Assembly: GCA_964016885.1 (NCBI GenBank)
Contig: OZ024741.1
Coordinates: 147,064,001-147,128,000 of the forward strand
Source: Eledone cirrhosa
Taxonomy: Eukaryota
Reading direction: 5' to 3'
Length of the DNA: 64,000 nt
In this document: positions 2,301-52,344 of the stretch, piece by piece
Layout of the letters: every line of letters starts with the position of its first letter
Position numbering within the stretch: the stretch's first letter is position 1
Position numbers and translations under genes: made by a program
Notes under the pieces: generated by a model
Told to the model about the DNA's origin: nothing
Database searches by the model: none
What the model saw: the letters and a program-made list of their open reading frames with translations, nothing else

Positions 2301-3044
2301 CCATGAGTAACCAGCTTAAGAAACTTTATTCCACAGATAACCTTATACTGCTGTCTTAGTTTACACCAGAAAGAAAGCAAACCAACCATTCTCAAAGAGA
2401 TATCCACATTAGTTGACTTGAGGCAAGTCATTTACAGAGGCAAGCCCAATGTTAATCCACTATAACCCATTGAAAATAATTTTTTCTGAGGCTAGAACTT
2501 CTTATAGCATCTGTAATTTATTTCTCTTAAATTCAATAAGCAAATGATATGTATTTTAAAAAAAGAGGAAAAATAAAAGACAAATAGAGAAGGGAGAAGA
2601 CCCCCCCCCCAACACACACACACTCAATTCCATGCCAAATGAAGGAGCACAGGAGGTCTTAATAATTGTTAAAGCAAGCCTACATGCTCATAGCATTGCA
2701 GTATGTTATAGCAATTATAAAGCTAAGTACCTCACAGGCATCACTTGAGACATTGCTAAGGCAAGTATAGTCATTAATATAATTATCCCACCTATAAGTT
2801 TAGATATTATTATCATTATTATTATTATTGGCGATCTACGTAGTAAATCGTATCATCGTGAGCTCCGCAAAGGTTTGTTATTTTCAGTTGTTTAAAATTG
2901 CCATTTATGGAAAATTTTTATTGTTAACTGTATATAAGTGCACATACATTGATTTCTCAAAAGGACACTGAAACATATTGGGGCCTTGAGCCCAAAATTT
3001 AAACTTTTTATAATTATCAAACAAAAATTTTTCTTTGAAACATC

Positions 3045-5008
3045 ATGGCTGACTCAGAGACACTGCTACCTCACAATCTAACACCTCACACCGACACCAC
3101 CATTGTAAATATTGCTACGTTTTCCAAACTGGAAATGTAAGCAGTAGCAATATTTTAAATTTGTCTCAAGCAGACGTTCATTTCCCGCCATTACCAATGA
3201 ATGCAGGTGTTAAAGCCGCCACCACCACCACCACCGCGACAACCACCACCCCCACCACCACCACAGCGACAACAGAAACAAAAGAAAAAAATAAATTAAC
3301 TCGTGATATCGAAATGAATTCAACCAAAATGAACTCTTCCACACCGAACACCACTGACGCCACCACCACCACAACTGAAACTAAAGTTAACAATAGCAAA
3401 AATAACGATAACAACAACAGCAACAATGAAATTAAGAAAACTACCCTGAGTTTTGCCAGAGTAGCAAAAACGTGCAAATAAATCCAGGTAACTCAGGAGG
3501 AATTAGAAGAAGCCAAAGGAATGGTAAAGAAAGATGGGTACAGGGTCAGCCCCCCCCCCCACACACACACACACACCTAATAAAATGGAGCAACGTCGCC
3601 TATGCACCGTGTCATATCGGACAATTAACATAAAATCACGCCGAGTGGAACGGGCATCCGAGTCCCAAATCCGAAAAGCTTTGGGACATGTGTGGGAAAA
3701 AAAAACCCACATCAGACGTGGGCAGAAGTATGGAACCGTGGACGTGTTCTTTGAAACACAACAGGAGGCCAGAGAACACTCCATGGCCCCATTAAGAAGT
3801 GACGACTTCACACTCGTCCCAAGCTATTGTGGCCATAGACTTGTGAAGATCAGGGTGACCCACGTTCCACCGGCCATCGAAATTCCCTGGCTAATGGCTG
3901 CCGTCCTCGCCGGCATTGAGGCCAACACCAAGATAATTGAAATAGCGAGAGAAAAGCAGGAGAACTGGTCCGGATCTGGGATGGAGCTCCTGATCCAAGC
4001 GGACCATAAAAGCATTGAGGAGATCCCAGAGGTAATAGACCTCACTGACGGCGCCACCTCACCGTAATCGTCGAAGGCAGAAGGGCTAGGTGTGTCGTTT
4101 GTGGTGAAGGAACCTACCTAAGGGCTTTCTGCCCTCAGGCTAAAAGGTTGAGGTCACCTCTCTTACCCTCCCCAGTGAATCAACCATCAACACCACCAGC
4201 ATCAGAAATGCCAGCAACAACTGTAGCAGCAACAACAGAAGCAACTGTAACAGCAACAACCCCAGTAACAGTAGCAAAACCAACACCACCACCACCCAAC
4301 GCGCCAGAACTAGCACCAGCACCTACACCATCCACCACGCCACAACCAAAACCAACGCCTGTGGAGGATTTTCCACTCCCCGGCTTATCGCAACTGGAGA
4401 TATATTGTGACGACGAGGAGTGGGAAACGGTATCAGGAAAAAAGAAAAAAAGAAACCAAAAAAGAAAAAATTCTCTTCCTTCCCCCTCCAAAAACAAAAT
4501 ACAGAGGGAAACAAATAAATTATCAAACAAAGAAGTTAGGACAAATATGCCACCATCCACACCAGCATCACCAACCCCATCACCACAAACACCAACACCA
4601 TCACCATCATTAACCCCAACACCACCATCACCAACACCAAAAAAGTCACCAAAAAGCGTAACAGAAACAAACCCACAACAAACGCAAACAAAACAAAACA
4701 ACCAAAACAATACACACTAAACAGCATTAAATTTGACCAACAACCAATTATTACACTACATGCAACACAACACCAGCATCACAGAAAAAGACTACACAAC
4801 AACCCAAAAGTTCACACCACCTCCACACATACAAATCACTCACATCACACAGAAAACGTACACGACACTAAAACAAAAATTCCCCAAAGACATCGGAGAC
4901 TTCCGACAAACATTCTCCAGGAGGATTGATAAGGACATCCTTCCGGAGGAGGCCACAAGCAGTGAAAAGGATGGACAAACCATCCTTCCTCTACGAGAAG
5001 TAAGGTAA
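3045..5008 (+). pseudogene. ORF1 (gag-like nucleic-acid-binding protein) of LINE copy A, disrupted
   Basis: ATG 3045, Thr/Asn-rich N-terminus, RRM-like segment in ORF 3534-4067, knuckle CVVCGEGTYLRAFCP near 4090-4135, Pro/Thr-rich and basic KKKKR stretch. Several frameshifts and stops; ends AGG-TAA at 5008. Confidence 0.75.
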
Positions 5009-5042
5009 GTGGTCTTTCCCATCTTTTCCACTCCATTTCAAC

Positions 5043-7452
5043 ATGACCTCACTCAGAATAGGCAGCATAAATGCGCGTGGCTTGGGGTCGTCATGGAAGC
5101 AGGGCCACCTGCTCAACGACCTCAGGGCACTAAACATAGATGTAGTGGCCATCAGCGAGACCAGAATCTCCGAAGAACGGGCAACAAAGCCACGATCCGG
5201 TCTTTGGTGGACCACGACGGGCGCATGCTACTCGATCCCGGGCAAATGCGTGAAGTTTTTCAGCGACACTTCGCTCAGTTGTTCGGGGACAGCTGCGGGC
5301 CGGATCGAGGGATGAACTTTAGTGTCTACCTCGACGGACTGCCGCGGCTCTCGGCCATTGAGGCGGAGTGTTGCGAAAAGCCGATAACAGCCGCTGAAGT
5401 ACGGGAGGCAATGACTAGCTGCACAAGGGGTAAATCGCCTGGTTTGGATGGTCTGCCCTATGAACTTTATGTACAGATGCCAGACTTGTTCGGAGGCCTC
5501 TTGGCGGACGTCTACTGCAACTGGCAACAGAACGGGAGAATTCCCAGCTCTGTGAGCCGAGGAGCTGTGGCGCTGCTGAGAAAGGATCCGAGCAAGGGGG
5601 ATAACATAGATAATTTTAGGCCCATAACTCTGCTAAACACAGAGTTCAAGATTTTGGCCAAGGTGCTAGCAAAGAGGTTGGTGCTTGTCGTTGGTGGTCT
5701 GGTGGGAGAGGCGCAGACATGCGCCATTCCCGACAGATCCATCCACGACAACCTCCACCTCATGCGATACATGGTAGAGAGGGTATCTAGGGAACCCGGC
5801 GCGGGTGGGTCCTTGATCAATTTAGATCAGTCGAAAGCTTTCGATAGGGTCGACCATCGTTACCTAGCAGCAGTCCTGAGGGCGGCTGGCTTTGGGCCCG
5901 TCTTCAGAGACTGGATCGCTGCCATGCACAGCGACATCTGCTCTATGGTGAGAGTGAACGGTCACCTTTCGGAACCGTTCAACATCATGCGCTCGGTCCG
6001 CCAAGGATGTCCCCTCTCGTCCCTCTTGTACGTATTGACTCTCGAGCCATTACTGCACAAACTGGAGACGTTGAGGGGGTCCCACGCGAACTAGGATGCG
6101 GAAGATCCGTGTCAGCATATATGGACGATGTCACCGTAGTGGTGTCGAACGCCAAACACATCGAGGCGATTGGCACTAGACTAAGAGAATACGAAGCGGT
6201 GACAGAAGCAATGACAACCAGGAAAAATCAGTGGGCCTGCAGCTCGGCACCTGGAGAGGCAGGTCCATGCCGTCCAACAGCGTCGTCGGGCGCTGGACGG
6301 ACGGACCAGTTAAATTGCTCGGGGTCTGGTTCGGTCCGGATCTCCAGACGGACAAAAACTGGGACGAGGTGACGAGCAGGGTGGCTTCTCTCACCCAGAA
6401 ATGGGCCGAGAGGAAGCTATCCCTGAAAGGTCGAGCGGAGGTGGCTAACGCGTATATTGTGTCCGTCATCTACTACCGCCTGACCGTCGTGCCTTGTCCT
6501 AAGCCTCGCCTGACTGCGCTGGAGCGTTTGCTCTTTCGCTTTTTGTGGAAGGGACGCGCTCCGATGGTCAGGCGGTCCATCTGTTGTCAACACCCGCTAC
6601 GTGGAGGGCTGGGAATGCCGTGGCTGATGATGCGCAGACACGAGCTCAGGCTACGACATCTCCACCTCTTCCTCGACGGTGATCAGGTGTGGTCACCGTT
6701 TGCTAGACGCATCTTTCCCTAGCTCGTCTCCTTGACGGAGCTGCAGTCCTGGGTCAAGCGAAGACCGAGAGGGAGCGCTTGAAGACTGGAATGTCTTCAG
6801 GCGTTCACAGCCCTCCACCTTGGCGTTCTATAGAGGATTAGTGGAGGGGAAGAGCGACGACGTACTTGGGGAAACTCTAGGCGTCGCCGAAAATCAACTA
6901 GCCAATCTCTTCGGAAGAACTTTCGGGCCGGGGCCTATGGACAACTTTCAGAAATCCCTGGCCTGGCAGTGCTACCGAGGAGCTTTGCCAGTTCGGGATA
7001 AACTCTACAGGCATGGAGGTGCCGTCAGCCGGGCATGTCCGAGATGCGGGCAGGGCGACGAAACCGTCCTAGACGCACTCGTCCAGTGTCCGAGCATTGC
7101 TGTCTTGTGGGTTTACGTCGAACACCTGCTGTCGCGTGTAGGACGGATCCAGCTATCAGCTGAGTCCATCGTGAGGATTTCCCCGCCCTCTTCCTTTAGC
7201 CGGGAATGGCAGGCACTTTTTATCTGTCTGGTGGCCATGGCGAAAGAGATAGTATGGTGGACACATTTGAAAGGGCTGAAGACGAGCACTTACTTCTTCG
7301 GTGATGCCCTGATTAACTTTTTCAAATTTCATTTAAAAAGGAAAATCAGGGTAGAAAGGGAAGTGCTCTCTTCCCAGCATTTTGTTGAAAGATGGGTGAG
7401 AGAGGCAAGAATGACCCGAGTGAATGGGCCTACTCTGAGTATGTGTCTGTAA
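5043..7452 (+). pseudogene. ORF2 (APE remnant, reverse transcriptase, zinc finger) of LINE copy A
   Basis: Starts MTSLRIGSINARGL...DVVAISETRIS (APE N-terminus), then jumps to the pre-RT linker. RT motifs lie in ORFs 5009-6094, 6231-6722 and 6820-7452, broken by frameshifts. Confidence 0.9.
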
Positions 7453-7701
7453 ATTAAAGGTGGAAATCTGGGAGAGGGCACCTGCCCTGGTGGTCAGGGT
7501 CACTGTGGCTTTTTAATGGGCTTTCTCCACGAATGTCCCTCGGAAGTCTCCCCCTATTAGTGAATTTTTTTTATTGTTCTATTATTACATCCTCTATTTC
7601 TTGTTTTTTACATGCAGAAATGCCCATTTGTACCGCCCTGTATTGTCCTGTACTGTCCTTAATGTCTACTTTATGTAGACCCTTGTGGTTAATAAAGAAA
7701 G

Positions 7702-7732
<31 letters not shown>

Positions 7733-7874
7733 GGTCGTTGAAGCGAATGAACGTACTATCGTGAGCTCGTAAGTTTATTTTGTTCAACGGTTTGAAATAC
7801 ATTTGTTATTAATATTTTTGGCCCAAATATTTAAACTTTGTATGTTTAAAAGAAAATTTTTATCAAAAAAAAAC

Positions 7875-9855
7875 ATGGCAGACCACGCCCTCCAAGTTTG
7901 AGTTTGGTGTCTTGCGACAGCAAGTCAAACATTGAGGCTAATAACGCTGCCCCTCCTGCAACAATTTAAAAATGTAACAAGACATCAGGCAATATCGCCA
8001 ACACCACCACCAACAACAGTGAGAACAAAAATGACAACAGCAGCAACAGCGACATTACCAAAAACAGTAAAAAGAAACAGTCGTGAACAAGAATGACAAC
8101 AGCACCAGCAACGACGATAAGAAAATCAATGACAACTGCAATAATGACAACAACACCAACAACAGAAAGAACAACAACAAAGACAACAATATCAACAACA
8201 GTGACAACCACAACAATAGCAACAACAACAACAATAGCAGCAGCAACAATATCAACGAAAACAACAACAAAATTAACACCACTAACCAGGACATAAACAG
8301 CAACAGCACCAACAGCAACAATACCAACTGCACCGAAAACAACAACAACGGCGGCACCAAAGACAACAATGATAACAGCAACAACAACAATTACAACAAC
8401 AACAACACCAACGACAACAAGAAGAACACTTTTGCTGCGGCAGCGGCCAAAAGTGGCCAGGCTTCAACATGGACCTCTCGAAAAAAGATGAAAAGTTGGC
8501 CCAGGCCTGGAAGCTCATCAAGCAAGAGCAAACCTGATCCAACTTAACTGTTCCGGTAGAAGCTATTGAAGCAGTGGAGCACAGAACAGTGCATTACAGA
8601 TGCATCTCAGCAGAAACCAAGAGGGCAGCTTTGAGAAGCCCTCACTATGAAACATGCTATGACACCTTGCAAAACCAGCAAGGTCATAATGTACCCCTTC
8701 CACATGGGAAAAAGAATCCCAGAATCCCACCAGGACTTGACATGTGGTGGCTTCTGGGATGTGTGATTGTGGAGGGGACAGGTACCGTCCCAATAGAAAT
8801 AACAAGAACTGCCAGAGAGGACTGGTCCGGGGTTGACCTGGAGATACTTCTCCAGATCAGGCCAGAGAATGTCAAAACAATCCCGGACTACATCCGTCTT
8901 CAGAATGGGACGGTCATTCACATTATAACTGAGGGCAAAAGGCCACATTGTTTCGTTTGTGGCTAAAAAACCCATTTGCGAGCCTTCTGCCCTCATCTAC
9001 TGAAAGATGCAAGGGGTCGAAGGGATCCACTGCTGCCGACGCGGGGCGAGGACCACAACCAACACGAGCACTGGCAAAACCACCAGCAACAGCACCAATA
9101 GAAAGACCACCACTAACATTGACCACCCAGGGGAGAAACGAGGAAAGTTGTCAAATTTCCCCTCCCCCCCAAAATACACACATCAATAAAAACATAAACA
9201 CACACACAGACCCCTCATCTACCAGTAGTGAAGATGAGGGAAAACCCAAATCCCCCAAAATGCAAAAAAGGAAACACAAAAAGAAGAAAAAAATACAACA
9301 AAGCACAAAAACACCCACAATAAAAAATGCAGACACCATCCACGCAAACATATCCCCAACAACCCAACATCAACACCGCCATCATCATCTCCATCATCAG
9401 AATCCCCCAAACGTAAACAACCTAAACAGACGCAAGAACAAATACACACACAAACATCTGAACCACAGACACCGCACTCACAACAAACACTGACACAACC
9501 GAAACAACACCATCAAAGCCATCACTGCCACAGCCATGCAAACAAATAAAATCACACCAATAAAACATACAAAACTTTGTGCTCGTTAGGAGGGCCAACA
9601 AGGAACTGATGGCCCTTGTAGCACAAAGTGAACAAATACAAAAAGAGGGGGAAATTTTTAAATCGAGCACATTTCACGTGCCGGAAGATTTGTTTCTGGT
9701 GCGAATGTTGCTCGATTTATACAAAGAAATACGAGACAGCTTTCCCCGGGACGTGAGAACTCCGAACATGAAACCCACTTCCAGACTTTTAAATGGGTTC
9801 CCAAAAGAACTATGGGGGTCAAACCACCCGACCTTCACAAGATCCCGGAAGGTAA
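7875..9855 (+). pseudogene. ORF1 of LINE copy B, disrupted
   Basis: ATG 7875, (AAC)n Asn-rich N-terminus, homology to copy A ORF1 (REDWSG vs QENWSG), CCHC knuckle CFVCG*KTHLRAFCP near 8948-8992. Confidence 0.72.
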
Positions 9856-9890
9856 GTAAACCTTTTTAGCCTCTCTTTTAGTCTGCCAAC

Positions 9891-12800
9891 ATGGCCGTAT
9901 TAAGAGTAGGAAGTTTAAATGTTTGATGCCTGGGATTATCCTGGAAGCAGGGTCACCTGCTCAACAACCTCAGGTCTCTAAAAATGGATGTAATTGCCAT
10001 CAGCGAGACCAGGATTTCTGACACGCGCACACTAGCCCCCATTTTCGACAACTATCAGATCTTCGCATCTGTTAGTCAGCCGGGAATGGGAGGTGGGGTG
10101 GCAGTGCTGTTTAGGAAAGGCCTGGATCTCGAGGTAAGGTTGATCTTCTGGGACACGGACAGTAAGTTGGTGGTCCTGGACGTGAACAATAATAAAGGTG
10201 GTGCCTGTAGACTGGTGGCCATCTATGCCCCTACTGGGGCAGGATGGCCGGACTTCTTTAGATGGCTGGAAGCCTTTCTGGGTACGTCTCGCCCTTTACT
10301 GTTAGCGAGGGACTGGAACGGCATCTTAGATACACGCTGGGACTGTGTGAGAGTATCTGATAGGAGCAGGAGGTGCAAAAGCCTCAAATACCTGATCAGC
10401 CAGTTCCAACTATCTGACAGGTACCGATTAGATTTCCCTAATGCGCCAGTGTGGACCTGGATCAACCGCATAGGGTCATCTAAATCTTATATAGACAGGA
10501 TATTCATTAGGAAAATAGACAGAAATAGTGTAAGCTGTCCACGATTTAAAACGGTCACCTATTCAGATCACAAGTTTGTGATCTGTATGGTCGAACTAGA
10601 TAAGACACGTAGGTTAGGACCTGGTTACTGGAAGCTGAACATGTCATTTCCGGCATGTAAGGCTTACAGGCACCAGGTCAACAATTTAGTTGAGAAAAAG
10701 TTGACAGGGGAGTTGTCAACAATAGATGGTGTGGGGCTCTCAAAAGAGAGATTAGAATAATGTCGATAGAGTTTAGCAAAGAAGTAGCGTTAGAGAAAAA
10801 TAGAAAGGAGGAGGAGTTGGTAAATAAGTTAGATGAGGCTTTTTGTAGGAGTATTGCAACTGACGTGTTAACGGTGAGGTTGGCATTAGATCATTTCTTC
10901 AATGTGAAACACAAAGGTTGCATTGTCAGAGCTAAGGCGTGTGCTCTGAGAAATGAGGGAACCAAAGCTGTTCGATAGTCCCATGTGACAGAGGTGCAGC
11001 GTGGTAATAGAACCACGATTCGGACTTTGATGGACTGAGATGGACACGAGCTGAGCGATTCCAGGCGGATGTGTGAGGCCTTTCGCTAAGATTTTGCTCG
11101 GTCGTTCAGGGGAAATGGCGGGTCAGAGATGGTGGCAGACTTAGGTCCCTACCTCGATGGCTTGCTGCAACTCTCGACGGTCGACGCTCAGCGCTGCGAA
11201 AAACCGATTACTTCAGCCGAGATTCAGCATGCCCTTGTTGGCTGCATGAGGCGCAAGTCACCCTGTTTGGAGGTCTACCCTACAAGCTTTATGTAAATAT
11301 GCCAGACTTGTTATCCGATCTCCTTGAAGTGCTCTACTGCAAGTGGCAGCAGAACGGGAGTATTCCCAGTTCTGTGAGCCGAGGCATAGTGATACTGATA
11401 AGGAAAGACAAGAACAAAAGCGACACATTAGACAATTTCAGGCCCATAACTCTGCTCAACACAGAGTTTAAGATTTTGGCCAAGGTGTTAGTGAAGAGGT
11501 TGGCGCTTGTCATCGAGGATTTGGTTGGCTGGCACAAACTTGCACAATCCCAGCCAGGTCCATACACGACAACCTCCACCTCATGTGATACATCATAGAG
11601 AGGGTAGGGTGTAAACCTGGCTTCGGTGGGGCTCTGATCGATTTAGATCAATCGAAAGCATTCGATAGGGTCGACATCGGTACCTGGAGGCTGTCCTCAA
11701 GGCGGCTGGCTTCGGCCCCATCTTCAGAAGCTGGATCACTGCAATGTACAGCGGCATCTGCTCAGTGGTCAAAGTTAATGGCCACCTCTCAGAATCATTT
11801 CAGATCTCCCGATCAGTCCATCAAGTGTGCCTTCTCTCCTCCCTTCTGTATGTATTGACTCTCGAGCCTTTACTGCGGAAGCTGGAGCTGTTGCAGGGCA
11901 TCCCGATCGAACCGGGACATGGAAAGGCTGTGTCGGCTTATGCGGACGACATCACCGTGATGGTGTCGGACACCTCAGAAATTGAGGTGGTCGGCAACTT
12001 ATTGGAGTAATATGAAAGGTCGACAGGAGCAAAACTTAACCCGGAAAAGTTGGTGGGCTTGCAACTCGGCACCTAGAGAGGCAAGTCCATGCCGTCCAAC
12101 AGCGTCATTGGGCACTGGACGGACGGACCGGTAAAGTTGCTCGGATTTGGTTCAGGCCAGACCTCCAGGTGGATAAGAATTAGGATGAGGTGACGAGCAG
12201 GGTAGCCAGTCTCACCCAGAAATGGGATGCGAGGAAGCTATCACTGAAAGGTCAGACAAAGGTGGGGAATGCGTACATTGCGTCCGTCATCTACTACCGC
12301 CTGACCATCGTCCCTTGCCCCCGTTTGTGCATCGCCAACTTAGAACGGCTCCTCTTCAAATTCTTCTGGTGGGGTCAGGTTCCATTGGTGTTGCCAGCAC
12401 CCTCTACATGGAGGGCTGGGCATGGCGTGGCTAATGATGCGCAGACACGTGCTGAAGCTGTGGCACCTCCAGATATTCTGCCTAAACGGTGACCAGGTGT
12501 GGTCGCCGTTTGTCAGATGGGCCTTTCCACACTTCGTCTCTTTGACTGAGCTGCAGTCCTGGGTCAAGAAGAGACCGAAACTGGGTGACTGGCATCTGGA
12601 ATATTGCCAGGCACTCATTGCCCTCTACCAGGTGGCAGTGTGGTCAGTGGAACTTCCACTCTCAAGTTCTATAGAGGATTAGTTGTGGGCAAGTGCGACA
12701 ACACACTCGGAGAAGCTCTGGGAGTCAACGAAGTTGAACTAAGCAGTCTGATCCGGAGGACTTTCGAGCCGGTGACGATGGATAATTTCCAAAAATTCCT

Positions 12801-13291
12801 CACTTGGCAGTCATACTGGGGAGCACTGCTGGTTCGAGATAAACTCTACAGGCACGGAAGTGCTGTTAGACGGACCTGCCCGAGATGCGCGCAGAGCGAC
12901 GAAACCGTTCTGCATGCACTCGTCCAGTGTCCATGCATTACTGACTTGTGGAGTTATGTCAAACAGCTGTTGTCGCATATAGAATGGATCCAGCTATCGG
13001 CCGAGTCCATAGTCAAGATCAACCTGGTGCCTTCTTTTGACCAAGAAGGGCAGGCAATTTTCCTGTCTGGTGGCAGTAGCAAAAGATGTTGTATGGTGGA
13101 CCAAGTTGAAAGGATTGAAGACAAGCATTTTTCTCTTCAGCCAATCCCTCATCAACTTTTTCAAGTTTCACTTGGAAAGGAAGGTGAGGGCGAAGGGAGA
13201 AGTGCTGCCCCCCAGTACATTTGCTAAAAGGTGGGTGAATGTGGCGAGAATGGCCCATGTGAGTGGGCCTACTCTGATCATGCATCTGTAG
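9891..13291 (+). pseudogene. ORF2 (APE endonuclease, RT, zinc finger) of LINE copy B, many stops and frameshifts
   Basis: ORF fragments 9984-10760, 11299-11598, 11744-12010, 12190-12492, 12604-13227 and 13037-13291 are collinear with copy A ORF2. Confidence 0.9.
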
Positions 13292-13574
13292 GTGGGTAAA
13301 TTTGAGGGGGAGAGGGGTGCCCATCCCGGGTACTCTCGAAGCGTCGGGTTGTTCAGGATTGGTGGGGTACCTGAGTGAACCCTGGGTGGTCATCCCCCTA
13401 TTGGGTAATTTTTCTTGTATTTTCTTGTTACTTTGTTATTGTTATTTATATTGTTTACACGTTTATATGTAAACCCCTGCTGTCCCAGTCTTTTGTATTG
13501 TCCCCTATATGTCGGCTCTTGTGGCCAATAAATGAAATCATTATTATTATTATTATTAGTAGTAGTAGTAGTAT

Positions 13575-13802
13575 GGTGATAGATTGGCAGTATCGGTAGA
13601 GTGTCTGACACCATAATTTGCAGCATAGAGTTACGACCCTTTATGTCCTGAATTCACCTCCCACAGAGGTTAGCTTTACCTTTCATGCTTGCGGGGTCGA
13701 TAAAATAAAGTACCAATAACATACTGGGTCAGTTTAATCGACTTTCCCTTCCCCAAAATTGTTGGCCTTGTGTCTAAATCAGAAACTATTATTATTATTA
13801 TT
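13575..13802 (+). mobile_element. tRNA-type SINE family A with (ATT)n tail
   Basis: Head with box A-like TGGCAGTATCGGTAG, central CTTTCAT.CTT.CGGGGTCGATAAAATAAAGTACCA, 3' end GGCCTTGTG...AGAAAC-(ATT)n. Many copies in the window. Confidence 0.8.
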
Positions 13803-14863
13803 GTATTGATGTTCTCGTTATTATTATTATTATTGTTAGTTTATTAATTTGTAGAGTAGTTATATCAATGAATACTGAGTCTTCAGATAGTTTAAAACTT
13901 ATTCTTGACAAATAAATCCTCTTAATACAACTTTCAGCTTTCTATAACAGCAATTGAAGCTTGTAGCATGGTAAAAAACACATTTATTTGAAGTGGAATA
14001 TAGTAGAGAAAACCTTGTAATTGGGAAATGTCACATATCTTAGAAAACTGTAATATTGTTGCCTACACATAAAAATAATTATTAATTTAGAGGGAAGCTT
14101 ATTAAATTAGAAAATGTAGTGATTAATAAGAAGCATCTATATAATCCAGCTCCAAACTTCTATATAAAAAATAGATATATATAGAAAATATCTCTTAAAC
14201 CAACCAGATAATGTATGTGTGTTATTTAAGCAGAGAAACACACAGAGCATCAATTTTGTTATAATCTATAACAATATTGGTAATGGGGCATTGAAGAAGA
14301 ATTAATTTCATCAGAAGATTCGATTAACAGCCATCGAAAAGGAAGTTATTTTAGACATATTTGTCCAATATATATGAAACAGGAATATAAATACTTATGC
14401 ATGTAGCTAGAAGTATGAACAATGTGGTTGACTTAAGATTGGATAAATTTGAAATTTGAAATGTATGCATCCCAACACAGTTGAGGCATAATTGTTGACA
14501 AAATTGAATAAAGTACCCCAGAAGATGGAAAAAGTAGACAAACACATATATATACATACACACAAATACACACACATGCATATATATATATATATATATA
14601 TATTTATTAAAATAACAGATTAAAGATTAAGCAAAGAATTGGTATATATATATATATATATATTGTTATACTTGGGGAGGGTCATATTTGTGTAATATTG
14701 CCAGAATTAATAACAGAACACACTCACTGTTTGGTTGGTTTTCGCTTCTCGCTGTCTTTTATATCGGTAATCTAACTTAATCGGTCCTCAATGTTGCCAC
14801 TGACTGACCGACGGTCAAAAATAATACAGATACAATATAGACACAAACACATATATATAGTTT

Positions 14864-14920
14864 ACATAATTTACATAAATCTTTCGTTGCACATCTGCAA
14901 CATCGTCAGTGGTGTTATAT
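14864..14920 (-). ncRNA. minimal type I hammerhead ribozyme motif (Penelope pLTR)
   Basis: Reverse complement of the 15042-15098 motif: CTGACGA-T-GTTGCA[GATG]TGCAAC-GAAA-GATT-TA. Confidence 0.65.
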
Positions 14921-15041
14921 TTTTCCTCCTGTTGTGTTGTATGTCTACGCCATTTTTTATTCAGTCTGTCTATAAAAAAAATAAAAAAATAAAAAAAAAA
15001 TAAAAAAATGGCGTAGACATACAACACAACAGGAGGAAAAA

Positions 15042-15098
15042 ATATAATACCACTGACGATGTTGCAGATGTGCAACGAAAGATTTATGTAAATTATGT
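15042..15098 (+). ncRNA. minimal type I hammerhead ribozyme motif (Penelope pLTR)
   Basis: CTGACGA 15053-59, stem II GTTGCA/TGCAAC, GAAA 15077-80, quasi-palindromic AGATTT, putative cleavage after A15086, stem I CA/TG plus ATATAAT/ATTATGT. Confidence 0.65.
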
Positions 15099-15356
15099 AA
15101 ACTATATATATGTGTTTGTGTCTATATTGTATCTGTATTATTTTTGACCGTCGGTCAGTTAATGGCAACATTGAGGACCGATTAAGTTAGATCGCAGATA
15201 TAAAAGACAGCGAGAAGCGAAAACCAACCAAACAGTGAGTGTGTTCTGTTATTAATTCTGGCAATATTACACAAATATGACCCTCCCCAAGTATAACAAT
15301 ATTTGTTTCGACACACGATTTCATATAAAAAACCTCGCTAAACTAATTCATTGCCG

Positions 15357-19795: not shown

Positions 19796-19912
19796 GTTTT
19801 ATTTTATTTTTCCTTTCCTTCTTCTTTCTCCAGCCTCACTTTCATATAGATTGCATTTTTGTTTTTAAAATCCAAATTCAATAAACAGACCAGGATTTTT
19901 TCATTCTGAGGA

Positions 19913-20521
19913 TTGAATGCAAAATTTTTTGCTTTTAAGAAACCACTGGTAAATGGAATAATTGTCATGTTTGTGGACGCCACCCCTGGAGGGAAATTAG
20001 CTAACCAGTGTAGAAAGGCCCTGAGAAAGACCCACTTAAAAATAAACGTGGTAGAAAAGCCAGGAACCACCATTAAATCCCTGATCAGCAAAACCTACCC
20101 TTTTAAGAAAACCCACTGTACCAATAGGAAATGTATCATATGTAAGGTGAACCCCCGGATAAACTGTAAAACTAGAAACGTAGTCTATAGCATAAGATGT
20201 ACAGAGGGTACTTGCAGAAACATGACAACAACATACATAGGTGAAACAGCTCGTAGCATAGGTGAAAGGATAGACCAACACTGGGGGGAACTAAAAGGAC
20301 GAAAAAACGGGTCAGTACTATACGAACATGCTAGACAACAACATGACGGTAACATAGACAACATAGAAATTAGAATAATATCTAAACATAGAAATGACCC
20401 AGCAGATAGGCAAATCAGAGAGGCCAGTGAAATAGAAATTAGAAGACCAAAGCTAAACAAAAAGAATGAATGGAATAACAACAACACCCAAACAAACAAC
20501 ACCGACCTAAGAGAAGTATAA
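19913..20521 (+). CDS. GIY-YIG endonuclease domain of a Penelope-like element (C-terminal fragment)
   Basis: VVY...YIG motif with conserved R, H, E and N residues; reading frame uninterrupted. Confidence 0.8.
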   Translation: MNAKFFAFKKPLVNGIIVMFVDATPGGKLANQCRKALRKTHLKINVVEKPGTTIKSLISKTYPFKKTHCTNRKCIICKVNPRINCKTRNVVYSIRCTEGTCRNMTTTYIGETARSIGERIDQHWGELKGRKNGSVLYEHARQQHDGNIDNIEIRIISKHRNDPADRQIREASEIEIRRPKLNKKNEWNNNNTQTNNTDLREV

Positions 20522-21142: not shown

Positions 21143-23590
21143 CAATTCAGGATTTGGGCACCATGGCCCATTCGAGAAGAGAATTACTGTTTGCGGAGAT
21201 ATATCCGGGTGTGGGTGGTTTGTCCGGGATTACTTGGAGGAATTGTCCAAAGACTTCTTGAATTTTGTGTGGTCAGTTTCTGTTTTGACGTGTTCAGGTG
21301 TGATGTTGAAGAGAGCAGGGCCAATTGAGGTGAAATAATTGTGCCGTATTGTTGTTATGAGTTGCGATTTGGATTTTTGTTTGGGACGGATAGCACGGGG
21401 CCCAAGCCTTGGGTGTATTTTGAAGGTGATGCCAACATCATTTGGGCAGTGGTGATGAAACATTTTCCACATCTTGCAGATAATATAACGCTCACGGCGA
21501 CTTTGGAGTGAGTAAAGTTTCAGCTTTTCTAGTCGACCCCAGTAGTCAAGGTCTGACATGCCATCTATCTTTTTCGTGATTGCCCTTTGGGGAGCTTCAA
21601 GTTTGATGATACTTTGTTTCATGTGGGAACACCACAGTGGACAACAGTATTCAAGGTGTGGTCGGGCAAAAGTGGAGAAGAGAAGGATAATGGTGTGGGA
21701 ATCTCTCGACTGAAAGGTTCTGAGGATCCAGGAACATATTCTGCGGGCCATGTCAACTTTGCTGCTTATATGCGTGGCCCAGCTTATGTTGCTGTCCACA
21801 GTTACTCCCAAGTCTCTGATGTTGTTAGATGCCACGAGAGTTTCACCGGAGGGAAGGGAGTACGGGAGTTTCAGAGCATCCTCTTTTCCAAAGTGGATCA
21901 GTTCGAATTTGTCTACGTTCAGTAACATGTTGTTCTTTTCCGCCCATTGGGTAACAGCCAGTAGGTCTGACTGAAGGCTTATCCGGTCATCCACGCCATT
22001 GATAACCTTTTGGAGCTTGGAATCATCAGCGAAAATTCTAATGTTGCTGTGTTTGATGATGTCAGTGATTTCATTAATATAGATGATGAAGAAAAGTGGG
22101 CCCAACACAGTGCTTTGTGGGACCCCACTACTGACTTTGGCTGGGCTGTATTTGACTCCTTCGACTACAACATGTTGGGTTCTGTTTGACAGGAAGCTCT
22201 TGATCCACTGCAGCAGCTTTACAGTGACACCAATATTGGACAGCTTTCTCAGTAGAATGTTGTGATCAACCCTGTCAAAGGCCTTGCTGAAATCAAGGTA
22301 GATAACATCAGTGTTGGAACCCTCTCCCAAGGCTCTCAAAATGTCATCAAAGTGATGCAGTAGCTGCGTCAGGCAATCCCTTCCATTACGGAATCCATGC
22401 TGGTTGGAGTTCAGCATATTGTTACTCTCAAGGAAGTGAGTCATTCGCGATCTCACCACTCTCTCAAATACCTTAATGATATGAGAGGTGAGTGAGATTA
22501 GACGGTAATTCTCGGCAAGGGATTTGTTTCCTTTTTTGAAAACTGGGACAACAGACTGGGATAGGTTTTCTGGCACATATCCAGCATCCAGTGAGTTCCG
22601 CCACAGATTGGCAAGAGGAGATGCAAGTTGGTATTGACACGCCTTCAAGACACAAGCAGGGAACCTATCGGGACCTACTGCTGAATTATGCTTGATTTCC
22701 TTTATTGCCGCTAAGACATCAGGTGCGCCAAACGTTATGTCCGATAAGGTGTAATGGGGAGTAACATCGCCGATACAGCTCAGATCGGCCATATCAGGAT
22801 TGCTGAAAACAGAGCAGTATTGTTTCTGCAGTATCTCAGCCATGGTTTTAGCATTGTCTTGAAGAGTGCCATTTTCATCAATTAGAGGGCCAACAGTAGA
22901 GCCAGTGATTTTGTGTTTTTTTGCAAATGAAAAGAACACTTTGGGATTGAGTTTGATCTTCTCAATGGCCCAGGCCTCTTCAGCTCTTCTCTGATTGTTG
23001 ATGAGGGACATTATGTTGTTTTGGAGGTTATGTTTTTTAATCTCTAGTGATGAAATGGCAGTCAAGTTGATGTGTTGCTGCTGACAGTATTTCAGCTTGT
23101 TGATTTTTTTGTTAGTTCTCTTAATTTTCCTGATGAGCGTTTTTCTATTTCTAGGGATTCTGCTCTTAGATTTATTTATAGTTCTTAATGGGGTGTGTTT
23201 TGCACATATGTTTGTAACAGTGTCCACAAATGACTGCCAGGACTTTTTGATGTTAGTGGGTGTGTGAGTGTGTGTGAAGGACCAGTCGACATGTGCAAGA
23301 TCATGACTGATCGCTTCCCAGTTTGCATTGTGGAAATCCGTAGCGCCAAACTAAGGGACAGGAGAGATGACATTGGGTTTGTATATTGGACGGTGGAATC
23401 TCAGATCACAGAGAACCATGTCATGATCAGAGAGTAGAGTTTTCTCCACTGCAATATTGTGGATAGTGTCAGTGAGATTGCTGAAAATTAAGTCTAGGAC
23501 GTTTTTGTGGCACCTCGTTGGTTCGAGCACCAGTTGGGACAGGAAGAAATCATCCATGAAGTCAAGAAGCGATTCCACTGCTTCCCTGTC
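21143..23590 (-). mobile_element. 5'-truncated CR1/L2-group LINE
   Basis: 665-aa ORF 21230-23227 with ENYRLISLTS, QHGFR, YLDFSKAFDRVDH, SGVPQSTVLGP, FADD, RPHLEYC. End of the APE domain ([15 protein letters not shown]) at 23400-23590. (TA)n on both sides. Confidence 0.9.
21230..23227 (-). CDS. reverse transcriptase ORF fragment (CR1/L2 group)
   Basis: Uninterrupted 665 aa containing the core RT motifs; frameshifted at both ends. Confidence 0.8.
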   Translation of the reverse strand: MDTVTNICAKHTPLRTINKSKSRIPRNRKTLIRKIKRTNKKINKLKYCQQQHINLTAISSLEIKKHNLQNNIMSLINNQRRAEEAWAIEKIKLNPKVFFSFAKKHKITGSTVGPLIDENGTLQDNAKTMAEILQKQYCSVFSNPDMADLSCIGDVTPHYTLSDITFGAPDVLAAIKEIKHNSAVGPDRFPACVLKACQYQLASPLANLWRNSLDAGYVPENLSQSVVPVFKKGNKSLAENYRLISLTSHIIKVFERVVRSRMTHFLESNNMLNSNQHGFRNGRDCLTQLLHHFDDILRALGEGSNTDVIYLDFSKAFDRVDHNILLRKLSNIGVTVKLLQWIKSFLSNRTQHVVVEGVKYSPAKVSSGVPQSTVLGPLFFIIYINEITDIIKHSNIRIFADDSKLQKVINGVDDRISLQSDLLAVTQWAEKNNMLLNVDKFELIHFGKEDALKLPYSLPSGETLVASNNIRDLGVTVDSNISWATHISSKVDMARRICSWILRTFQSRDSHTIILLFSTFARPHLEYCCPLWCSHMKQSIIKLEAPQRAITKKIDGMSDLDYWGRLEKLKLYSLQSRRERYIICKMWKMFHHHCPNDVGITFKIHPRLGPRAIRPKQKSKSQLITTIRHNYFTSIGPALFNITPEHVKTETDHTKFKKSLDNSSK

Positions 23591-23883
23591 ATATATATAT
23601 ATGTATATATATATATATGTATATATGTATATATATATATATGTATATATGTATATATGTATATATATATATATGTATATATGTATATATATATATGTAT
23701 ATATGTATAGATATATATATGTATATATATATGTATATATATATGTATATATATATATATATGTATATATATGTATATATATGTATATATGTATATATAT
23801 ATGTATATTTATATATGTATATATATGTATATATATATATGTATATATATATATGTGTATATATATATATGTATATATATATG

Positions 23884-23916
<33 letters not shown>

Positions 23917-23953
23917 GTATATATATATGTATATATATATATATGTATATATG

Positions 23954-23985
<32 letters not shown>

Positions 23986-23990
23986 TATAT
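23591..23990. repeat. (TA)n/(TATG) microsatellite
   Basis: Seen directly in the sequence. Confidence 0.98.
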
Positions 23991-24110
23991 GAAGGCATGT
24001 GGCTGAGTGGTTAGAGAATTGGATTCGCAATCGTAAGGTTGTGAGTTCGATTCCTGGACCAGGTGATGCGTTATGTCCTTGAGCAAGACACTTTATTTCA
24101 CGTTGCTCCT
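23991..24110 (+). mobile_element. tRNA-derived SINE family B, 5' part
   Basis: Box A TGGCTGAGTGG and box B GTTCGATTCC, followed by CORE-like GTCCTTGAGCAAGACACTT. Related heads near 44260, 41780-41880 (-) and 63070-63200 (-). Confidence 0.8.
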
Positions 24111-26722: not shown

Positions 26723-29334
26723 TCATCATCATCATCATCATCAACGTTTAACGTCCGTGTTCCACGCTTACATGGGTTTGGACGGGGGTAGTCCCACTTG
26801 AGGCAAGAGTGATTGTCTTGCTCGCATAGGACTGTCTGGCAGGTTTTCTACAGTTGGATGCCCTTCCTAACACCAACCACATTTACAGTGTGGGTCTGGG
26901 AGGTTTTTACCGTGTTGCCTACACGGCCACATTACAGCGTGGACTGTGTGTTTTTTTGTCGTGACACCTACACGATCTCATTTGTTTCGGCCTGGATGGC
27001 GCGGCACCAACATAACTTTACATAGAACGGGGTGGTGTGGATGGGGTGGGGTGTGTGTGTGTGTGGGGGGGGGGGGGGGTATTTTGTTAGAGATGCCTAC
27101 TGGCAAGGCGGGTCTTCTCTGTTACTGAGTACCGCCAGAGGTCTCGGTCCAGTGACATTGTCTTGGAGAGGTGTAAGTGTGTGAGGTCTGAGTTTATCAG
27201 CTCATCCCAGGTTTTTCTAGGTCTGCCTATTCCGTGGCTACAGTCTATCTTTATTGCCCTGCACTTTGTTATACAGCTATCGACTTTCATGCGCATCACG
27301 TGTCCATACCAACGCAGCCTTCTCTCGAGTAAACAACATCTGATCCCTCTTATCTCTAATTTTTTCCTTAGTTCGTTTATGCTTTGCCGTTCACGTATAT
27401 TACTGTTACACATCCAGCGGAGCATGCAAGCTTCGTTCCTCTCTAGTCTGCGTATATCCTCTGCACACAATGCCCAGGTGTCACTACCATGCAACATTGC
27501 TGTTCGTATGCAGGCATCGTACAACCTGCCTTTCATTTTTAGGGAGAACCCTTTAGCAGCTAATAGTGGTATAAGCTCTCTGAACTTTTTCCAACCAGTT
27601 CTGACTCTAGCTACAGTACTTTCAGAGCACCCTCCCCCACTGCTGATTTTATCGCCCAGGTAACGGAAGCTGTCCAGTATTTCTATAGAACCCTCTGCGC
27701 AATTGAAAGAGTTAGTATTTTGTGGGCACTTGCTGCTACTTATTGCACCAGAACACCGGCCACATGTAAAATCTATGTTCTTAGTTAGCTTACCTGTGAT
27801 CCCACTACATCTTTTATGCACCCATACTTTGCATTTAGGACATAAAATGGAGTTTCTACCTACGCCTTTCCTACACACCGAGCACGACCATTTCCCAGAA
27901 GAGACCGCCGCCTTGTTTTCTTTCCTACAAACTAGAACTTTGGTCTTAGCCAGGTTAATTTTAAGTCCTTTTGACTCTAGGCCGTGCTTCCATGTTTGGA
28001 ATTTCTTCTCTAGCTCGGCCATTGATTCCGCTAAGAGTGTCAGGTCGTCTGCGTATAGGAGTTCCTATGGGCAGCCTGTCTTGAACTCCTCTGTTATAGC
28101 CTGAAGGGCAATAATAAATAGTAGGGGGCTGAGAACAGAGCCCTGATGGACGCCAACTTTTACGCTAAACTCTTCACTATATTCGTTGTTAATTCTAACC
28201 TTGCTGACTGTTTCTTTATACATGGCTTGTATAGCCCTCACAAGCCATTCGTCAACGCCTAGTTTTCTAAGAGCCCACCAGATAATGGAGCGGGGGACTC
28301 TGTCGAAGGCTTTCTCCAGGTCGACAAAAGCTAAGTAGAGGGGTTTACCTTTAGCTAGGTACTTCTCCTGTAGTTGTCGTACTATGAAAAGAGCGTCTGT
28401 GGTGCTTTTGCCTGACACAAACCCGAACTGCATTTCATCTAGGTCAATTCTCTCTCTGATTAGTTGCGCTATTACTTTTTCCGTGACCTTCATGACCTGG
28501 TCGATTAATTTAATGCCTCTATAGTTACTCCTATCTAGGGCGTCTCCTTTACCCTTATAACAGTTAACGATGATGCTGCTATGCCAGTCCTTCGGAACAA
28601 CCCCATTCTGTACAACTTGGTTAACTATGCGGGTGACCATGGTGTGTCCCACCGTGCCAGATGCTTTCAGCATCTCAGCAACTATTTCCGAAGGCCCAGC
28701 CGCCTTACCCGTCTTCATATCCTTGATTGCCTTACTTATTATACTCCCCTCGTCTAACACTGCTGGTCCCTCTATTGGGTCGATATGGGGGAGACTGTCT
28801 TTCTCCCATTTATTCTCCTCATTTAGTAGCCTTTCATAGTGACACTTCCAAGCTACCTTCTTATCAGTGTCGGTGATGGCAAGTATGCCATCATCGTTAA
28901 GTACACACTTCTCCCCGACAATATCACGGTTTTCCTTGACGCATTGCCTAGCAATCCTGAACACCTCACGTTTTTGGTCATCGCGTTGTAGAACATGCTT
29001 GAACTTTCTTTCCTCAGCTTCCCTTCTTGCTAAGTACACTTCTCTCCTAGCTTCCCTCCTGGCCACTTGATAGTCTACTCTACTTCCCCCATCCCGCCAT
29101 ACTTTCCAAGCCTGCTTTTTGGCCTTAATTGACCCCTCCACCCTACTGTTCCACCACCATGTTACTCTCCTCCTGCCTACAGGCCTGCTCCAGCCACAGA
29201 CTTCGTCTGTCGCCAACAGCAGGTTTGCTTTCAGAAATTCCCACTGTCCCTCTATATTGTCCGATTCTAGATGCTCTTCCTTACTGTCGAAAGCATCAAG
29301 TAATATGCTTTGAAATTTATTTCTGGCTGTGGGG
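26723..29334 (-). mobile_element. RTE-clade LINE copy 1, 5'-truncated, (GAT)n tail
   Basis: ORFs 28065-29216 and 27087-28022 are separated by one TGG>TAG stop. Motifs [49 protein letters not shown]. Confidence 0.93.
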
Positions 29335-29369
<35 letters not shown>

Positions 29370-30632: not shown

Positions 30633-33017
30633 ATCATCAACATCATCATCGTTTAACGTCCGTGTTCCACGCTTGCATGGGTTTGGACGGGAGTTTTCCC
30701 ACTTGAGGCAAGAGTGGCTGTGTTGCTCGCATAGGACTATCTGGCGGGTTTTTCTACAATTGGATGCCCTTCCTAACACCAACCACATTTACAGTGTGGG
30801 ACTGAGAGGTTTTTACCGTGTTACCTACACGGCCACATTACAGCGTGGACTGTCTGGCGGGTTTTCTACAGCTGGATGCCCTTCCTAACACCAACCACAT
30901 TTACAGTGTGGGACTGGGAGGTTTTTACCGTGTTGCCTACACGGCCACATTACAGCGTGGACTGTGTGTTTTTTTGTCGTGACACCTACACGATCTCATT
31001 TGATTCGGCCTGGATGTTGTGGCACCAACATAACTTTACATTGAAAGGGGCGGTGTGGATGGGGTGTGGGAGGGGGGGGGGGGGGTATTTTGTTAGAGAT
31101 GCCTACTGACTGTAGTAGGTTTTACTTTGTATTTAGGTAAGGCGGGTCTTCTGTATTACTGAGTACCGCCAAAGGTCTCGGTCCAGTGACATTGTCTTGG
31201 AGAGGTGTAAGTGTGTGAGGTCTGAGTTTATCAGCTCGTCCCAGGTTTTTCTAGGTCTGCCTATTCCGTGGCTACCGTCTATCTTTATTGCCCTGCACTT
31301 TTTTATACAGCTGTCATCTTTCAGGCGCATCACGTGACCATACCAACGTAGCCTTCTCTCGAGTAAACAACATCTGATCCCTCTTATTTCTAATTTTTCC
31401 CTTAGTTCGTTTATGCTTTGCCGTTCGCGTATATTACTATTACACATCCAGCGGAGCATGCAAGCTTCGTTCCTCTCTAGTCTGCGTATATCCTCTGCAC
31501 ACAATGCCCAGGTCTCACTGCCATGCAACATTGTTGTTCGTATGCAGGCATCATACAGCCTACCTTTCATTTTTAGGGAGAACCCTTTAGCGGCTAATAG
31601 TGGTATAAGCTCTCTGAACTTTTTCCATCTAGTTCTGACTCTAGCTACTGTACTTTCAGAGCACCCTCCCCCACTGCTGATTTTGTCACCCAGGTAACGG
31701 AAGCTGTCTACTATTTCTATAGAACCCTCTGCGCAATTGAAAGAGCTAGTATTTTGTGGGCACTTGCTGCTACTTATTGCACCAGAACACCGGCCACATG
31801 TAAAAATTTATGTTCTTAGTTAGCTTACCTATGATCCCACTACATCTTTTATGCACCCATACTTTACATTTGGGACATAAAATGGAGTTTCTACCTACGC
31901 CTTTCCTACACACTGAGCATGGCCATTTCCCGGAAGGGACCGGCACCTTATTTTCTTTCCTACAAAGTAGAACTTTAGTCTTAGCCAGGTTAATTTTAAG
32001 GCCTTTTGATTCTAGGCCGTGCTTCCATGTTTGGAATTTCTTCTCTCGCTCCGCCATTGATTCAGCTATGAGCGTTAGATCATCTGCGTATAGGAGTTCC
32101 CATGGGCAGCCGGTCTTGAACTCCACTGTTATAGCCTGAAGGGCAATAAGAAATAGTAGGGGCCTAAGAACAGAGCCCTGATGAACACCAACTTTTACGC
32201 TAAACTCTTCACTATATTCGTTGTTAATTCTAACCTTGCTGACTGTTTCTTTATACATGGCTTGTATAGCTCTCACAAGCCATTCGTCAACACCTTGTTT
32301 TCTAAGAGCCCACCAGATAATGGAACGGGGGACTCTGTTGAAGGCTTTCTCCAAGTCGAGGAAAGCTAAGTATAAGGGTTTACTTTTAGCTAGATACTTC
32401 TCCTATAGTTGTCGTACAATGAAAAGAGCGTCTGTGGTACTTTTGCCTGACACAAACCCGAACTGCATTTCATCTAGATCGATTCTCTCTCTGATTAGTT
32501 GCGCTATTACTTTTTCCGTGACCTTCATGACCTGGTCGATTAGTTTAATGCCTCTATAGTTACTCCTATCTAGGGCATCTCTTTTACCCTTGTAGCAGTT
32601 AATGATGATGCTGCTACGCCAGTCCTTCGGAACAACCCCATTCTGTATGACTTGGTTTACTATCCGGGTGACCATGGTGTGTCCCACCATTCCAGAGGCT
32701 TTCAGCATCTCAGCAACTATTTCCGAAGGCCTAGCCGCCCTACCCGTCTTCATATCTTTGATTGACTTACTTATTATACTACCTTCGACTAACACTGCTG
32801 GTCCCTCTATTGGGTCGATGTGGGGGAGACTGTCTTTCTCCCATTTATTCTCCCCATTTAGTAGCCTTTCGTAGTGACACTTCCAAGCTACCTTCTTATC
32901 AGCATCAGTGATGGCAAGTACGCCATCATCGTTAAGTACACACTTCTCCCCGACAATATCACGGTTTTCCTTGACACATTGCATAGCAATCCTGAACACC
33001 TCACGTTTTTGGTCCTC
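30633..33017 (-). mobile_element. RTE-clade LINE copy 2, 5'-truncated
   Basis: ORFs 32403-33017, 31770-32354 and 31133-31570 are nearly identical to copy 1; (CAT)n at the 3' end. Confidence 0.93.
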
Positions 33018-33024
33018 ATATATG

Positions 33025-33055
<31 letters not shown>

Positions 33056-33118
33056 TTATATATATAAATATATATATATATGTATATATGTATATATATA
33101 TGTATATATGTATATATG

Positions 33119-33149
<31 letters not shown>

Positions 33150-33282
33150 GTATATATGTATATATATATATATGTATATATGTATATATATATATATGTA
33201 TATATGTATATATGTATATATATATGTATATATGTATATATATATATATGTATATATGTATATATATATATATGTATATATG

Positions 33283-33371
<89 letters not shown>

Positions 33372-33403
33372 ATATATATATACATACATATATATATATA
33401 TAT
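33018..33403. repeat. (TA)n microsatellite
   Basis: Seen directly in the sequence. Confidence 0.98.
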
Positions 33404-43320: not shown

Positions 43321-43397
43321 GCAGTGTATTTCTGGTGCTTTATTTTATCGACCCCGTAAGGATGAAGGACAAAGCTAAACTCAGCAGGATTTGAACC

Positions 43398-43439
<42 letters not shown>

Positions 43440-43542
43440 TGTTTCTACTTTTGGCACAAGGCCAGCAATTACCCAGTACATTACTAATAAAGTACCAGTA
43501 ATGTACTGAGTAATTGTTGGCCTTGTGCCAAAAGTAGAAACA

Positions 43543-43576
<34 letters not shown>

Positions 43577-52251: not shown

Positions 52252-52287
52252 CATATATACATGCTTATACCATATATATATACATAT

Positions 52288-52344
<57 letters not shown>

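Follow-up and report, generated by a model that had tools for sequence, protein, structure and literature searches.

The locus described here raises the question of how two different LINEs and a SINE came to be joined head to tail. The window, a stretch of 64,000 nucleotides from the 3.0 Gb genome of the octopod Eledone cirrhosa, contains the series (ATT)8-LINE A-(ATT)10-LINE B-(ATT)6(AGT)5-SINE-(ATT)5, entirely on the + strand and without intervening unique DNA. An initial annotation had described this arrangement as an array of diverged LINE families in one orientation, and not a simple tandem duplication; the sequence from 2806 to 13802 confirms the arrangement, and the 73% identity of A and B the divergence. 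The features are:

2806..2829, + strand: 5′ ATT tract of 8 units (one ATC), the target remnant ahead of LINE A
2830..7702, + strand: LINE A, a dead copy with a complete 5′ end, about 96% identical to the best genomic copies
about 3045-4990, + strand: remnant of LINE A ORF1, in which the knuckle of the window copy reads CVVCGEGTYLRAFC
ATG at 5043 to stop at 7452, + strand: LINE A ORF2, with frameshifts and a deletion of about 970 bp after 5182
at 7702, + strand: LINE A 3′ end, CCCTTGTGGTTAATAAAGAAAGC
7703..7732, + strand: (ATT)10 at the A/B junction
7733..13539, + strand: LINE B, of an older family, with a complete 5′ end, 90-93% identical to the best genomic 3′ ends
9891-13291, + strand: LINE B ORF2, interrupted by frameshifts and stop codons, in which the APE, RT and zf-RVT domains can be recognised
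13540..13572, + strand: (ATT)6(AGT)5 tract from LINE B to the SINE
about 13574..13787, + strand: SINE with tRNA-like A and B boxes (identified by eye), 83-87% identical to the best copies
13788..13834, + strand: (ATT)5, 17 nt, (ATT)5, the 3′ target remnant

Both window LINEs are broken by frameshifts and stop codons, and the deletion in LINE A removes most of the endonuclease. Pfam detected RVT_1 and zf-RVT in LINE A, and Exo_endo_phos, a weak RVT_1 and zf-RVT in LINE B. The two elements can be aligned over ORF2 only, at 73-78% identity. Simple tandem duplication is ruled out by this divergence, together with the finding that array neighbours across the genome are mostly unrelated. The identities to the best relatives (about 96% for A, 90-93% for B and 83-87% for the SINE) suggest that LINE A is the youngest insertion; it was probably the latest arrival, inserted into the tract ahead of LINE B. 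The likely order at this locus is therefore LINE B and the SINE first, and LINE A afterwards into B's 5′ tract. An Rfam search of the array gave no match above chance. No empty site for the locus was present in the contigs of four runs, which break at repeats and so provide no evidence.

A third, younger sister family, C, was reached through an A-like 3′ end, and its copies are 97-99.8% alike across the last 2.5 kb. Some copies of families C and A have an intact ORF2 of 1139 amino acids with APE, RT and zf-RVT domains (Pfam), and its APE catalytic motifs align with those of human L1 ORF2p, the best PDB match (E 3e-37). One such natural intact copy lies on the minus strand at C1:55,423,944-55,427,360 (L301). 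In both families, in copies other than the window LINE A, ORF1 carries a CX2CX4HX4C knuckle; Pfam gave no Transposase_22 and no RRM match in ORF1. A single-sequence structure prediction of the endonuclease was unusable (pLDDT 36). Families A and C are 96% identical in ORF2 and 43% in the ORF1 core, and 5 of 11 B-headed copies with the 3′ end in reach end in the sequence of another family; both observations are consistent with sequence mixing among families. Exact 3′ ends number at least 6573 of A/C type and at least 1405 of B type in the genome. The nearest named ORF2 homologues are Argonauta hians proteins (55-74%) and an Octopus bimaculoides model fragment. The ESM Atlas returned generic EN-RT-zf clusters only, a metagenome scan yielded distant relatives only (24-42%), and the 22 inspected of 80 metagenome loci were devoid of an ATT tail or hairpin.

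These proteins have the features of the L1 group: two ORFs, an ORF2 with N-terminal APE, RT and C-terminal zinc finger, and an RT placed among L1-like elements and away from those of CR1/L2 and RTE. An ORF1 with a CCHC knuckle is also described in plant L1 (PMC5203782, available text). RT trees were built without vertebrate L1, Tx1L, Kibi or Koshi sequences, with Tx1 represented by three U2-snRNA-flanked Keno-like metagenome loci (L347, L348 and L354). The octopod proteins grouped in a single clade (100/100), whose sister was an unnamed group with about 50% RT identity (100/100). They were separated from the window's CR1-like outgroup (98/92), and also from RTE in the FastTree tree, the one tree with RTE in it. 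FastTree joined the octopod clade with turtle and teleost proteins (0.93) and with the Keno-like rows (0.90); in an IQ-TREE analysis of 48 of the 97 rows, the backbone linking the octopod clade to the Keno-like rows was unsupported either way. The type I-like ORF1 knuckle, the APE-RT-zf order and the Keno-like relatives make membership of the Tx1 clade likely. The Tx1-like label given initially is thus upheld for the L1/Tx1-type features and only likely for Tx1 itself. Two other identities were considered. Dong/R4 is ruled out, as families A, B and C have an APE and two ORFs; the (TC)n, (TTC)n, (TTCC)n or (TTTC)n targets of the Kibi/Koshi lineage are not matched, the target being ATT, with (CTT)n at 2/49 truncated junctions.

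Mostly non-(ATT)n 5′ flanks with ordinary target duplications would speak against insertion at (ATT)n, and full-length copies present a different picture. Family A starts were taken as the exact genome matches of one 25-mer from the A start (n = 1460), and 1366 of these (93.6%) were preceded by an exact in-phase (ATT)3, as were 1564 of 1604 family C starts (97.5%). The background for ATTATTATT was 2.0e-4 per position, in 200 kb sampled at 20 round coordinates. An ATT tract also lay ahead of 24 of the 25 best-scoring intact-head B copies (30 loci, less two without a head match and three with cut heads; the window copy and one duplicated locus are included). The 5′ junction of full-length copies is a near-invariant, in-phase ATT/G, and in all of 30 sampled C starts the tract comprised at least six units, equal to one duplication length. 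At the other end, ATT directly followed 235 of 253 distinct lineage 3′ ends among the loci retrieved. Kojima's rule for a target preference asks for one repeat type in more than 20% of flanks (PMC4494074, in the text available); the proportions of full-length starts given above exceed this, as do the 20/49 truncated junctions described below. ATT targeting by these LINEs is real and genome-wide.

Because the 5′ tract of full-length copies could be derived from RNA, truncated copies and SINEs provide a fair test of the target. Truncated copies were tallied by hand; of 96 rows, 49 junctions were retained, and 47 were dropped for internal rearrangement, inversion, a library gap or duplicate status. 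At least three ATT units were present at 20/49 junctions and one or two at 4/49; a further 8/49 lay in impure or unique DNA and had a duplication with ATT or ACT at its start, 3/49 adjoined (CTT)n or (GTT)n (two of them (CTT)n), 4/49 abutted a lineage end without a tract, and 10/49 lacked any sign of ATT. An automatic count found at least three ATT units at 13/31 young and 3/28 old truncated copies. Truncated copies thus show far less strict targeting than would be expected from the full-length figures. At individual loci, some impure tracts require a few extra 3′ units to be explained (L156), and L433 has three ATT in front and a 3′ flank that becomes impure after two.

Among complete SINEs, 24/131 had (ATT)4 in front, as did only 2/14 SINEs of the round-coordinate sample and window combined. 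An informative duplication was found in 38/131, and in 22 of these 38 it measured 15-19 bp. The duplications start with the consensus ATTATT, have a pyrimidine at -1 in 30/38 cases, and in 26/38 begin right at the end of the element, with no added tail. The same tail-less arrangement was found at three LINE loci (L097, L100 and L106). In unique DNA, SINEs and older or truncated LINE copies are flanked by ordinary 15-19-bp duplications that start with ATT, so that the core target is no more than a short ATTAT(T), with a duplication of about 17 bp; microsatellites are the densest form of this target. The microsatellite preference is stronger in young LINEs than in the SINE or in old B. In the array at C1:57.08-57.11 Mb the 3′ junction retains the target's G in GTTATT, so that this tail is target DNA. 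Duplications that directly follow the element end imply that new targets arise on both sides by duplication of target DNA. In the initial annotation the lineage was (ATT)n-targeted and each insertion regenerated a target in its own tail. Insertion at (ATT)n stands, with 94-98% of full-length starts, and is to be widened to an ATTAT(T) core that is also hit in unique DNA. Regeneration in the tail is not supported by the tail-less duplications, nor in the window by the position of the younger LINE A, which lies in the 5′ tract of the older LINE B and not in a tail.

Octopus SINEs are known by the names OR1, OR2 and Twitch. The 3′ 27-mer of the SINE family in the window has 134,138 exact matches in the genome, corresponding to at least 134,138 copies; ARAGORN found no tRNA in the SINE. 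Its 3′ end can be aligned to those of the LINEs along CTTGTG...AGAAA-ATT, with about 15 matching columns. In the LINE 3′ ends, CTTGT forms the loop of a 4-bp stem that varies in both arms, being AACC/GGTT in families A and C and GGCC/GGCC in B. A stem of 3-5 bp is possible in 191/202 LINE ends and 130/155 SINE ends, these ends having been picked by the loop motif. The stem is part of the minimum free energy fold in 2/2 LINE ends and 0/2 SINE ends, with weak z-scores; the SINE can form a stem of 3-4 bp outside its predicted fold.

The shortness of the motif common to SINE and lineage, and a SINE hairpin that is not the predicted fold, leave room for mobilisation by another LINE (RTE, CR1 or R4/Dong-like), the hotspot being merely common to both; according to Table 1 of PMC3747384, as far as that table is available, SINEs are usually paired with RTE or CR1. 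We consider this unlikely. The window's RTE copies have (GAT)n tails, and the R4/Dong-like antisense elements have (AAT)n tails on the other strand, so that neither matches the tail of the SINE and the ATT lineage may be taken as the best partner candidate. Compared with RTE and R4/Dong-like elements, only the ATT LINE lineage has the tail polarity of the SINE, its distance to the CTTGT motif and its duplication of about 17 bp starting with ATT. The ATT LINE lineage thus likely mobilises the SINE.

Stacking is not confined to the window. A sample of 100 full-length A/C copies was drawn from contig C1 in list order. The end of a lineage LINE lay directly in front of 35 of them, and that of a SINE in front of 13. 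Among 34 copies with a reachable 3′ end, the element that followed was a LINE start in 3, a SINE in 5 and an antisense element in 9. Among the first 100 A starts listed, 10 belonged to unit-spaced pairs on the same strand (0.07 expected), and arrays of three to five members exist. The same tracts also harbour unrelated R4/Dong-like elements, inserted on the opposite strand. When neighbouring copies of the same family were compared, 16/20 pairs differed throughout, as unrelated copies do. Judged from these comparisons, array neighbours are mostly independent insertions, and the proposal that head-to-tail arrays grow by serial insertion holds, with 35/100 copies behind LINE ends.

Plain independent insertion does not describe the other 4/20 pairs; three contain giant duplications, a count that rests on 20 pairs, and one (L319) is ambiguous. 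At C1:57.08-57.11 Mb, two copies share a 42-bp spacer with the old resident downstream, and contain the resident's first ~1300-1430 and ~560 bp unchanged, followed by young sequence. As a control, identity over 500 bp was found in 0/153 pairs among 18 other C copies. At C1:55.42-55.46 Mb, the LINEs differ by 0.55-0.96%, while an 816-bp fragment lying between copies has been duplicated without a single difference. The simplest reading of the giant duplications is that the new cDNA was finished by annealing to the downstream resident; unequal crossover or mis-assembly is a possible alternative. Human L1 is known to produce comparable chimeras in cells.

Taken together, the array is probably a stack of independent insertions by L1/Tx1-type octopod LINEs and a SINE that they likely mobilise, aimed at ATT, mostly as (ATT)n, by a mechanism of the following kind. 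The first step would be a nick by the ORF2 APE in the AAT strand, immediately 3′ of AATAAT. The element RNA would read through its own AATAAA into the flanking (AUU)n, which would pair with the nicked primer, and reverse transcription would thus start without poly(A) and often without an added tail. A second nick about 17 bp further on would duplicate about six ATT units, giving one target on each side. Full-length transcripts probably also carry upstream (AUU)n at their start, and the cDNA of this (AUU)n may anneal to the target to produce the in-phase ATT/G junction. With a target left on both sides, every insertion would double the local targets, and arrays could extend both ways.

Recognition of (ATT)n by the APE itself and pairing of the RNA (AUU)n with the nicked strand would fit the data equally. 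Conserved target letters sit where the RNA would pair, and the -1 pyrimidine bias (30/38) hints at an L1-like endonuclease share. Pairing of tail and target has been proposed for other LINEs (PMC6007223 and PMC1950540, in the text available). A more far-reaching combination is conceivable, and we put it forward tentatively: the RNA would largely set the targets, through priming and annealing by the co-transcribed terminal (AUU)n; the same machinery, acting through a CUUGU hairpin common to LINE and SINE, would have driven the octopus SINE explosion, with the SINE as the first Tx1 tail partner; and new cDNA, landing next to a homologous resident, would often be completed by copying the resident's flank and 5′ end, giving kilobase duplications, rebuilt full-length copies and swaps of promoter-ORF1 modules between families.

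A strictly specific endonuclease, with the APE alone recognising long (ATT)n and each copy adding an RNA-templated tail, would agree with the 94-98% of full-length copies at (ATT)3, the tracts of at least six units in 30/30 sampled C starts and the extra 3′ units needed at impure tracts such as L156. It also has a precedent in the Tx1L endonuclease, which nicks its own target almost exclusively in vitro (PMC1950540, available text). We nevertheless regard it as improbable, because it is at odds with tail-less duplications in unique DNA, with the tail made of target DNA at C1:57.08-57.11 Mb (the G of GTTATT) and with insertions beside (ACT)n, (CTT)n and (GTT)n. The converse proposal dispenses with targeting: (ATT)n would belong to both element ends, insertion would occur anywhere in AT-rich DNA, and arrays would result from co-transcription or tandem duplication. 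This is already largely refuted and has very little to commend it, since duplications in unique DNA themselves begin with ATTAT, ATT target DNA is present at 32/49 truncated junctions, neighbours are mostly unrelated in sequence and family, and the unrelated R4/Dong-like elements use the same tracts on the other strand. In its favour are the 10/49 truncated junctions without ATT, and the in-phase ATT/G junction together with L433, which suggest that some 5′ ATT is RNA-derived.

ATT-aimed stacking by L1/Tx1-type LINEs can be set beside several known systems, compared here by description and from the available text of the papers cited. Kibi targets (TC)n, Koshi (TTC)n and crocodilian Tx1 (TTCC)n/(TTTC)n (PMC4494074); like the octopod lineage these are APE-type L1-group LINEs in microsatellites with many dispersed copies, whereas here the target is ATT, the host an octopod, and a short core motif is used in unique DNA too. 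Dong, of the R4 clade, inserts at (TAA)n, including snail DongBg, and is the only element for which PMC3812793 gives TAA repeats as the target. It uses the same microsatellite, and R4/Dong-like elements with a single ORF and no APE share the tracts in this genome; Dong differs in clade and nuclease, in the strand, which is opposite, and in its (AAT)n tail polarity. SINEU and Tx1-Mar offer a SINE with the target of a Tx1 LINE, often in tandem around the duplication, and tandem SINEU insertions of this kind have been described (PMC4494074). SINEU has snRNA heads and a Mariner target, whereas the SINE here is tRNA-like and in addition has a 3′ motif in common with the LINE; Table 1 of PMC3747384 (2013), in the form available, contains no Tx1 pair with a common tail. 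Human L1, the closest solved structure, has a TTTT/AA target and poly(A) pairing (PMC1950540), and resembles the octopod lineage in its short nick motif, purine-rich 3′ of the nick, and in its duplications of about 15-19 bp, 5′ truncations and inversions. It differs in that the octopod elements have (AUU)n instead of poly(A), a CCHC knuckle in ORF1, a conserved 3′ hairpin with compensatory changes, and most copies in one repeat.

In cephalopods, L1-Tx1 and Dong-R4 have expanded in coleoids (PMC8967140, in which the available text gives no target data), and SINEs of the tRNA-Core class are octopus-specific expansions (PMC8967140; OR2 in PMC4758252). The available text of these two papers does not describe a target preference, arrays or a SINE partner for octopus L1-Tx1 and SINEs, and that of PMC9115989 does not mention Tx1. 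Full-text literature searches gave no report of a Tx1 element targeting (ATT)n or of a Tx1-SINE pair in octopus; either may already be recorded in Repbase, older key papers or supplements.

Microsatellite-specific Tx1 elements and tandem stacking are already known in general, and the octopod lineage behaves like such an element. What is new is the ATT target and the mollusc host for microsatellite-specific APE LINEs, on a large scale, and the naming of a likely engine for an octopod SINE of at least 134,138 copies. As the genome contains young natural copies whose ORFs are intact, the relative shares of endonuclease and RNA-DNA pairing in LINE target choice are directly testable. Many octopod ATT microsatellites are mobile-element junctions, and as such poor markers.

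ATT-associated elements other than the main array were present in the window, in the positions listed here:

54,545-54,900, minus strand: second small stack, consisting of a LINE 3′ end, (ATT)4, SINE and (ATT)4
43,050-43,730: SINE cluster amid ATT/AAT tracts

The window also contained the following repeats:

21,230-24,010; 27,087-29,369; 31,133-33,425; 50,633-52,352; 56,801-59,581, all minus strand: CR1/L2-like and RTE-like LINE remnants
53,004-53,555, minus strand: Penelope-like GIY-YIG remnant, with a Pfam match
19,910-20,521: Penelope-like GIY-YIG remnant, without a Pfam match
14,660-15,300: MITE-like element, read from the sequence as a long inverted repeat around an A-tract
~760-1,360: imperfect tandem repeat with an AT-rich unit of ~120-160 bp, identified by eye

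The CR1/L2-like and RTE-like remnants were interrupted repeatedly by long (TA)n tracts, and the RTE ends in the window were (GAT)n. A second end of the MITE-like element lay near 20,960. TRF did not report the tandem repeat at ~760-1,360.

The tracts used by the LINE lineage were also occupied, on the opposite strand, by two families with (AAT)n at their ends, which we take, partly from their motifs, to be R4/Dong-like:

L317:194-3406: single ORF, RT, no APE
L315:4058-7468: single ORF, RT, no APE

Both gave PDB matches to R2 only, and R4/Dong-like elements were found behind 9 of 34 family A copies. U2 snRNA followed Keno-like elements (the metagenome loci L347, L348 and L354, and also L338 and L343), and a U2-like piece was also located just upstream of ORF1 in L348, L338 and L343.

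Giant duplications were found at three array junctions on contig C1 of the E. cirrhosa assembly (G000):

C1:57,083,001-57,108,000 (L308-L310): spacer plus the first ~560 or ~1300-1430 bp of the resident (the older downstream copy), unchanged
C1:55,421,001-55,461,000 (L301-L304): 816-bp intervening fragment, unchanged

Sequence of another family formed the 3′ end in five of the 11 B-headed copies whose 3′ end was in reach (L281-L300). 5′-inverted copies, which resemble products of L1 twin priming, were found at L283, L154, L443 and L239. A fourth type of 3′ end, F, was present, as was one more type of head.

Young family C copies in which both ORF1 and ORF2 are intact were located as follows:

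L301:2944-8537, minus strand
L306:877-4491
L316:3766-7221, minus strand

Exact family C starts numbered 1604. ORF2 was common to families C and A (96%), whereas ORF1 was not (43%), which suggests that a 5′ module was swapped.
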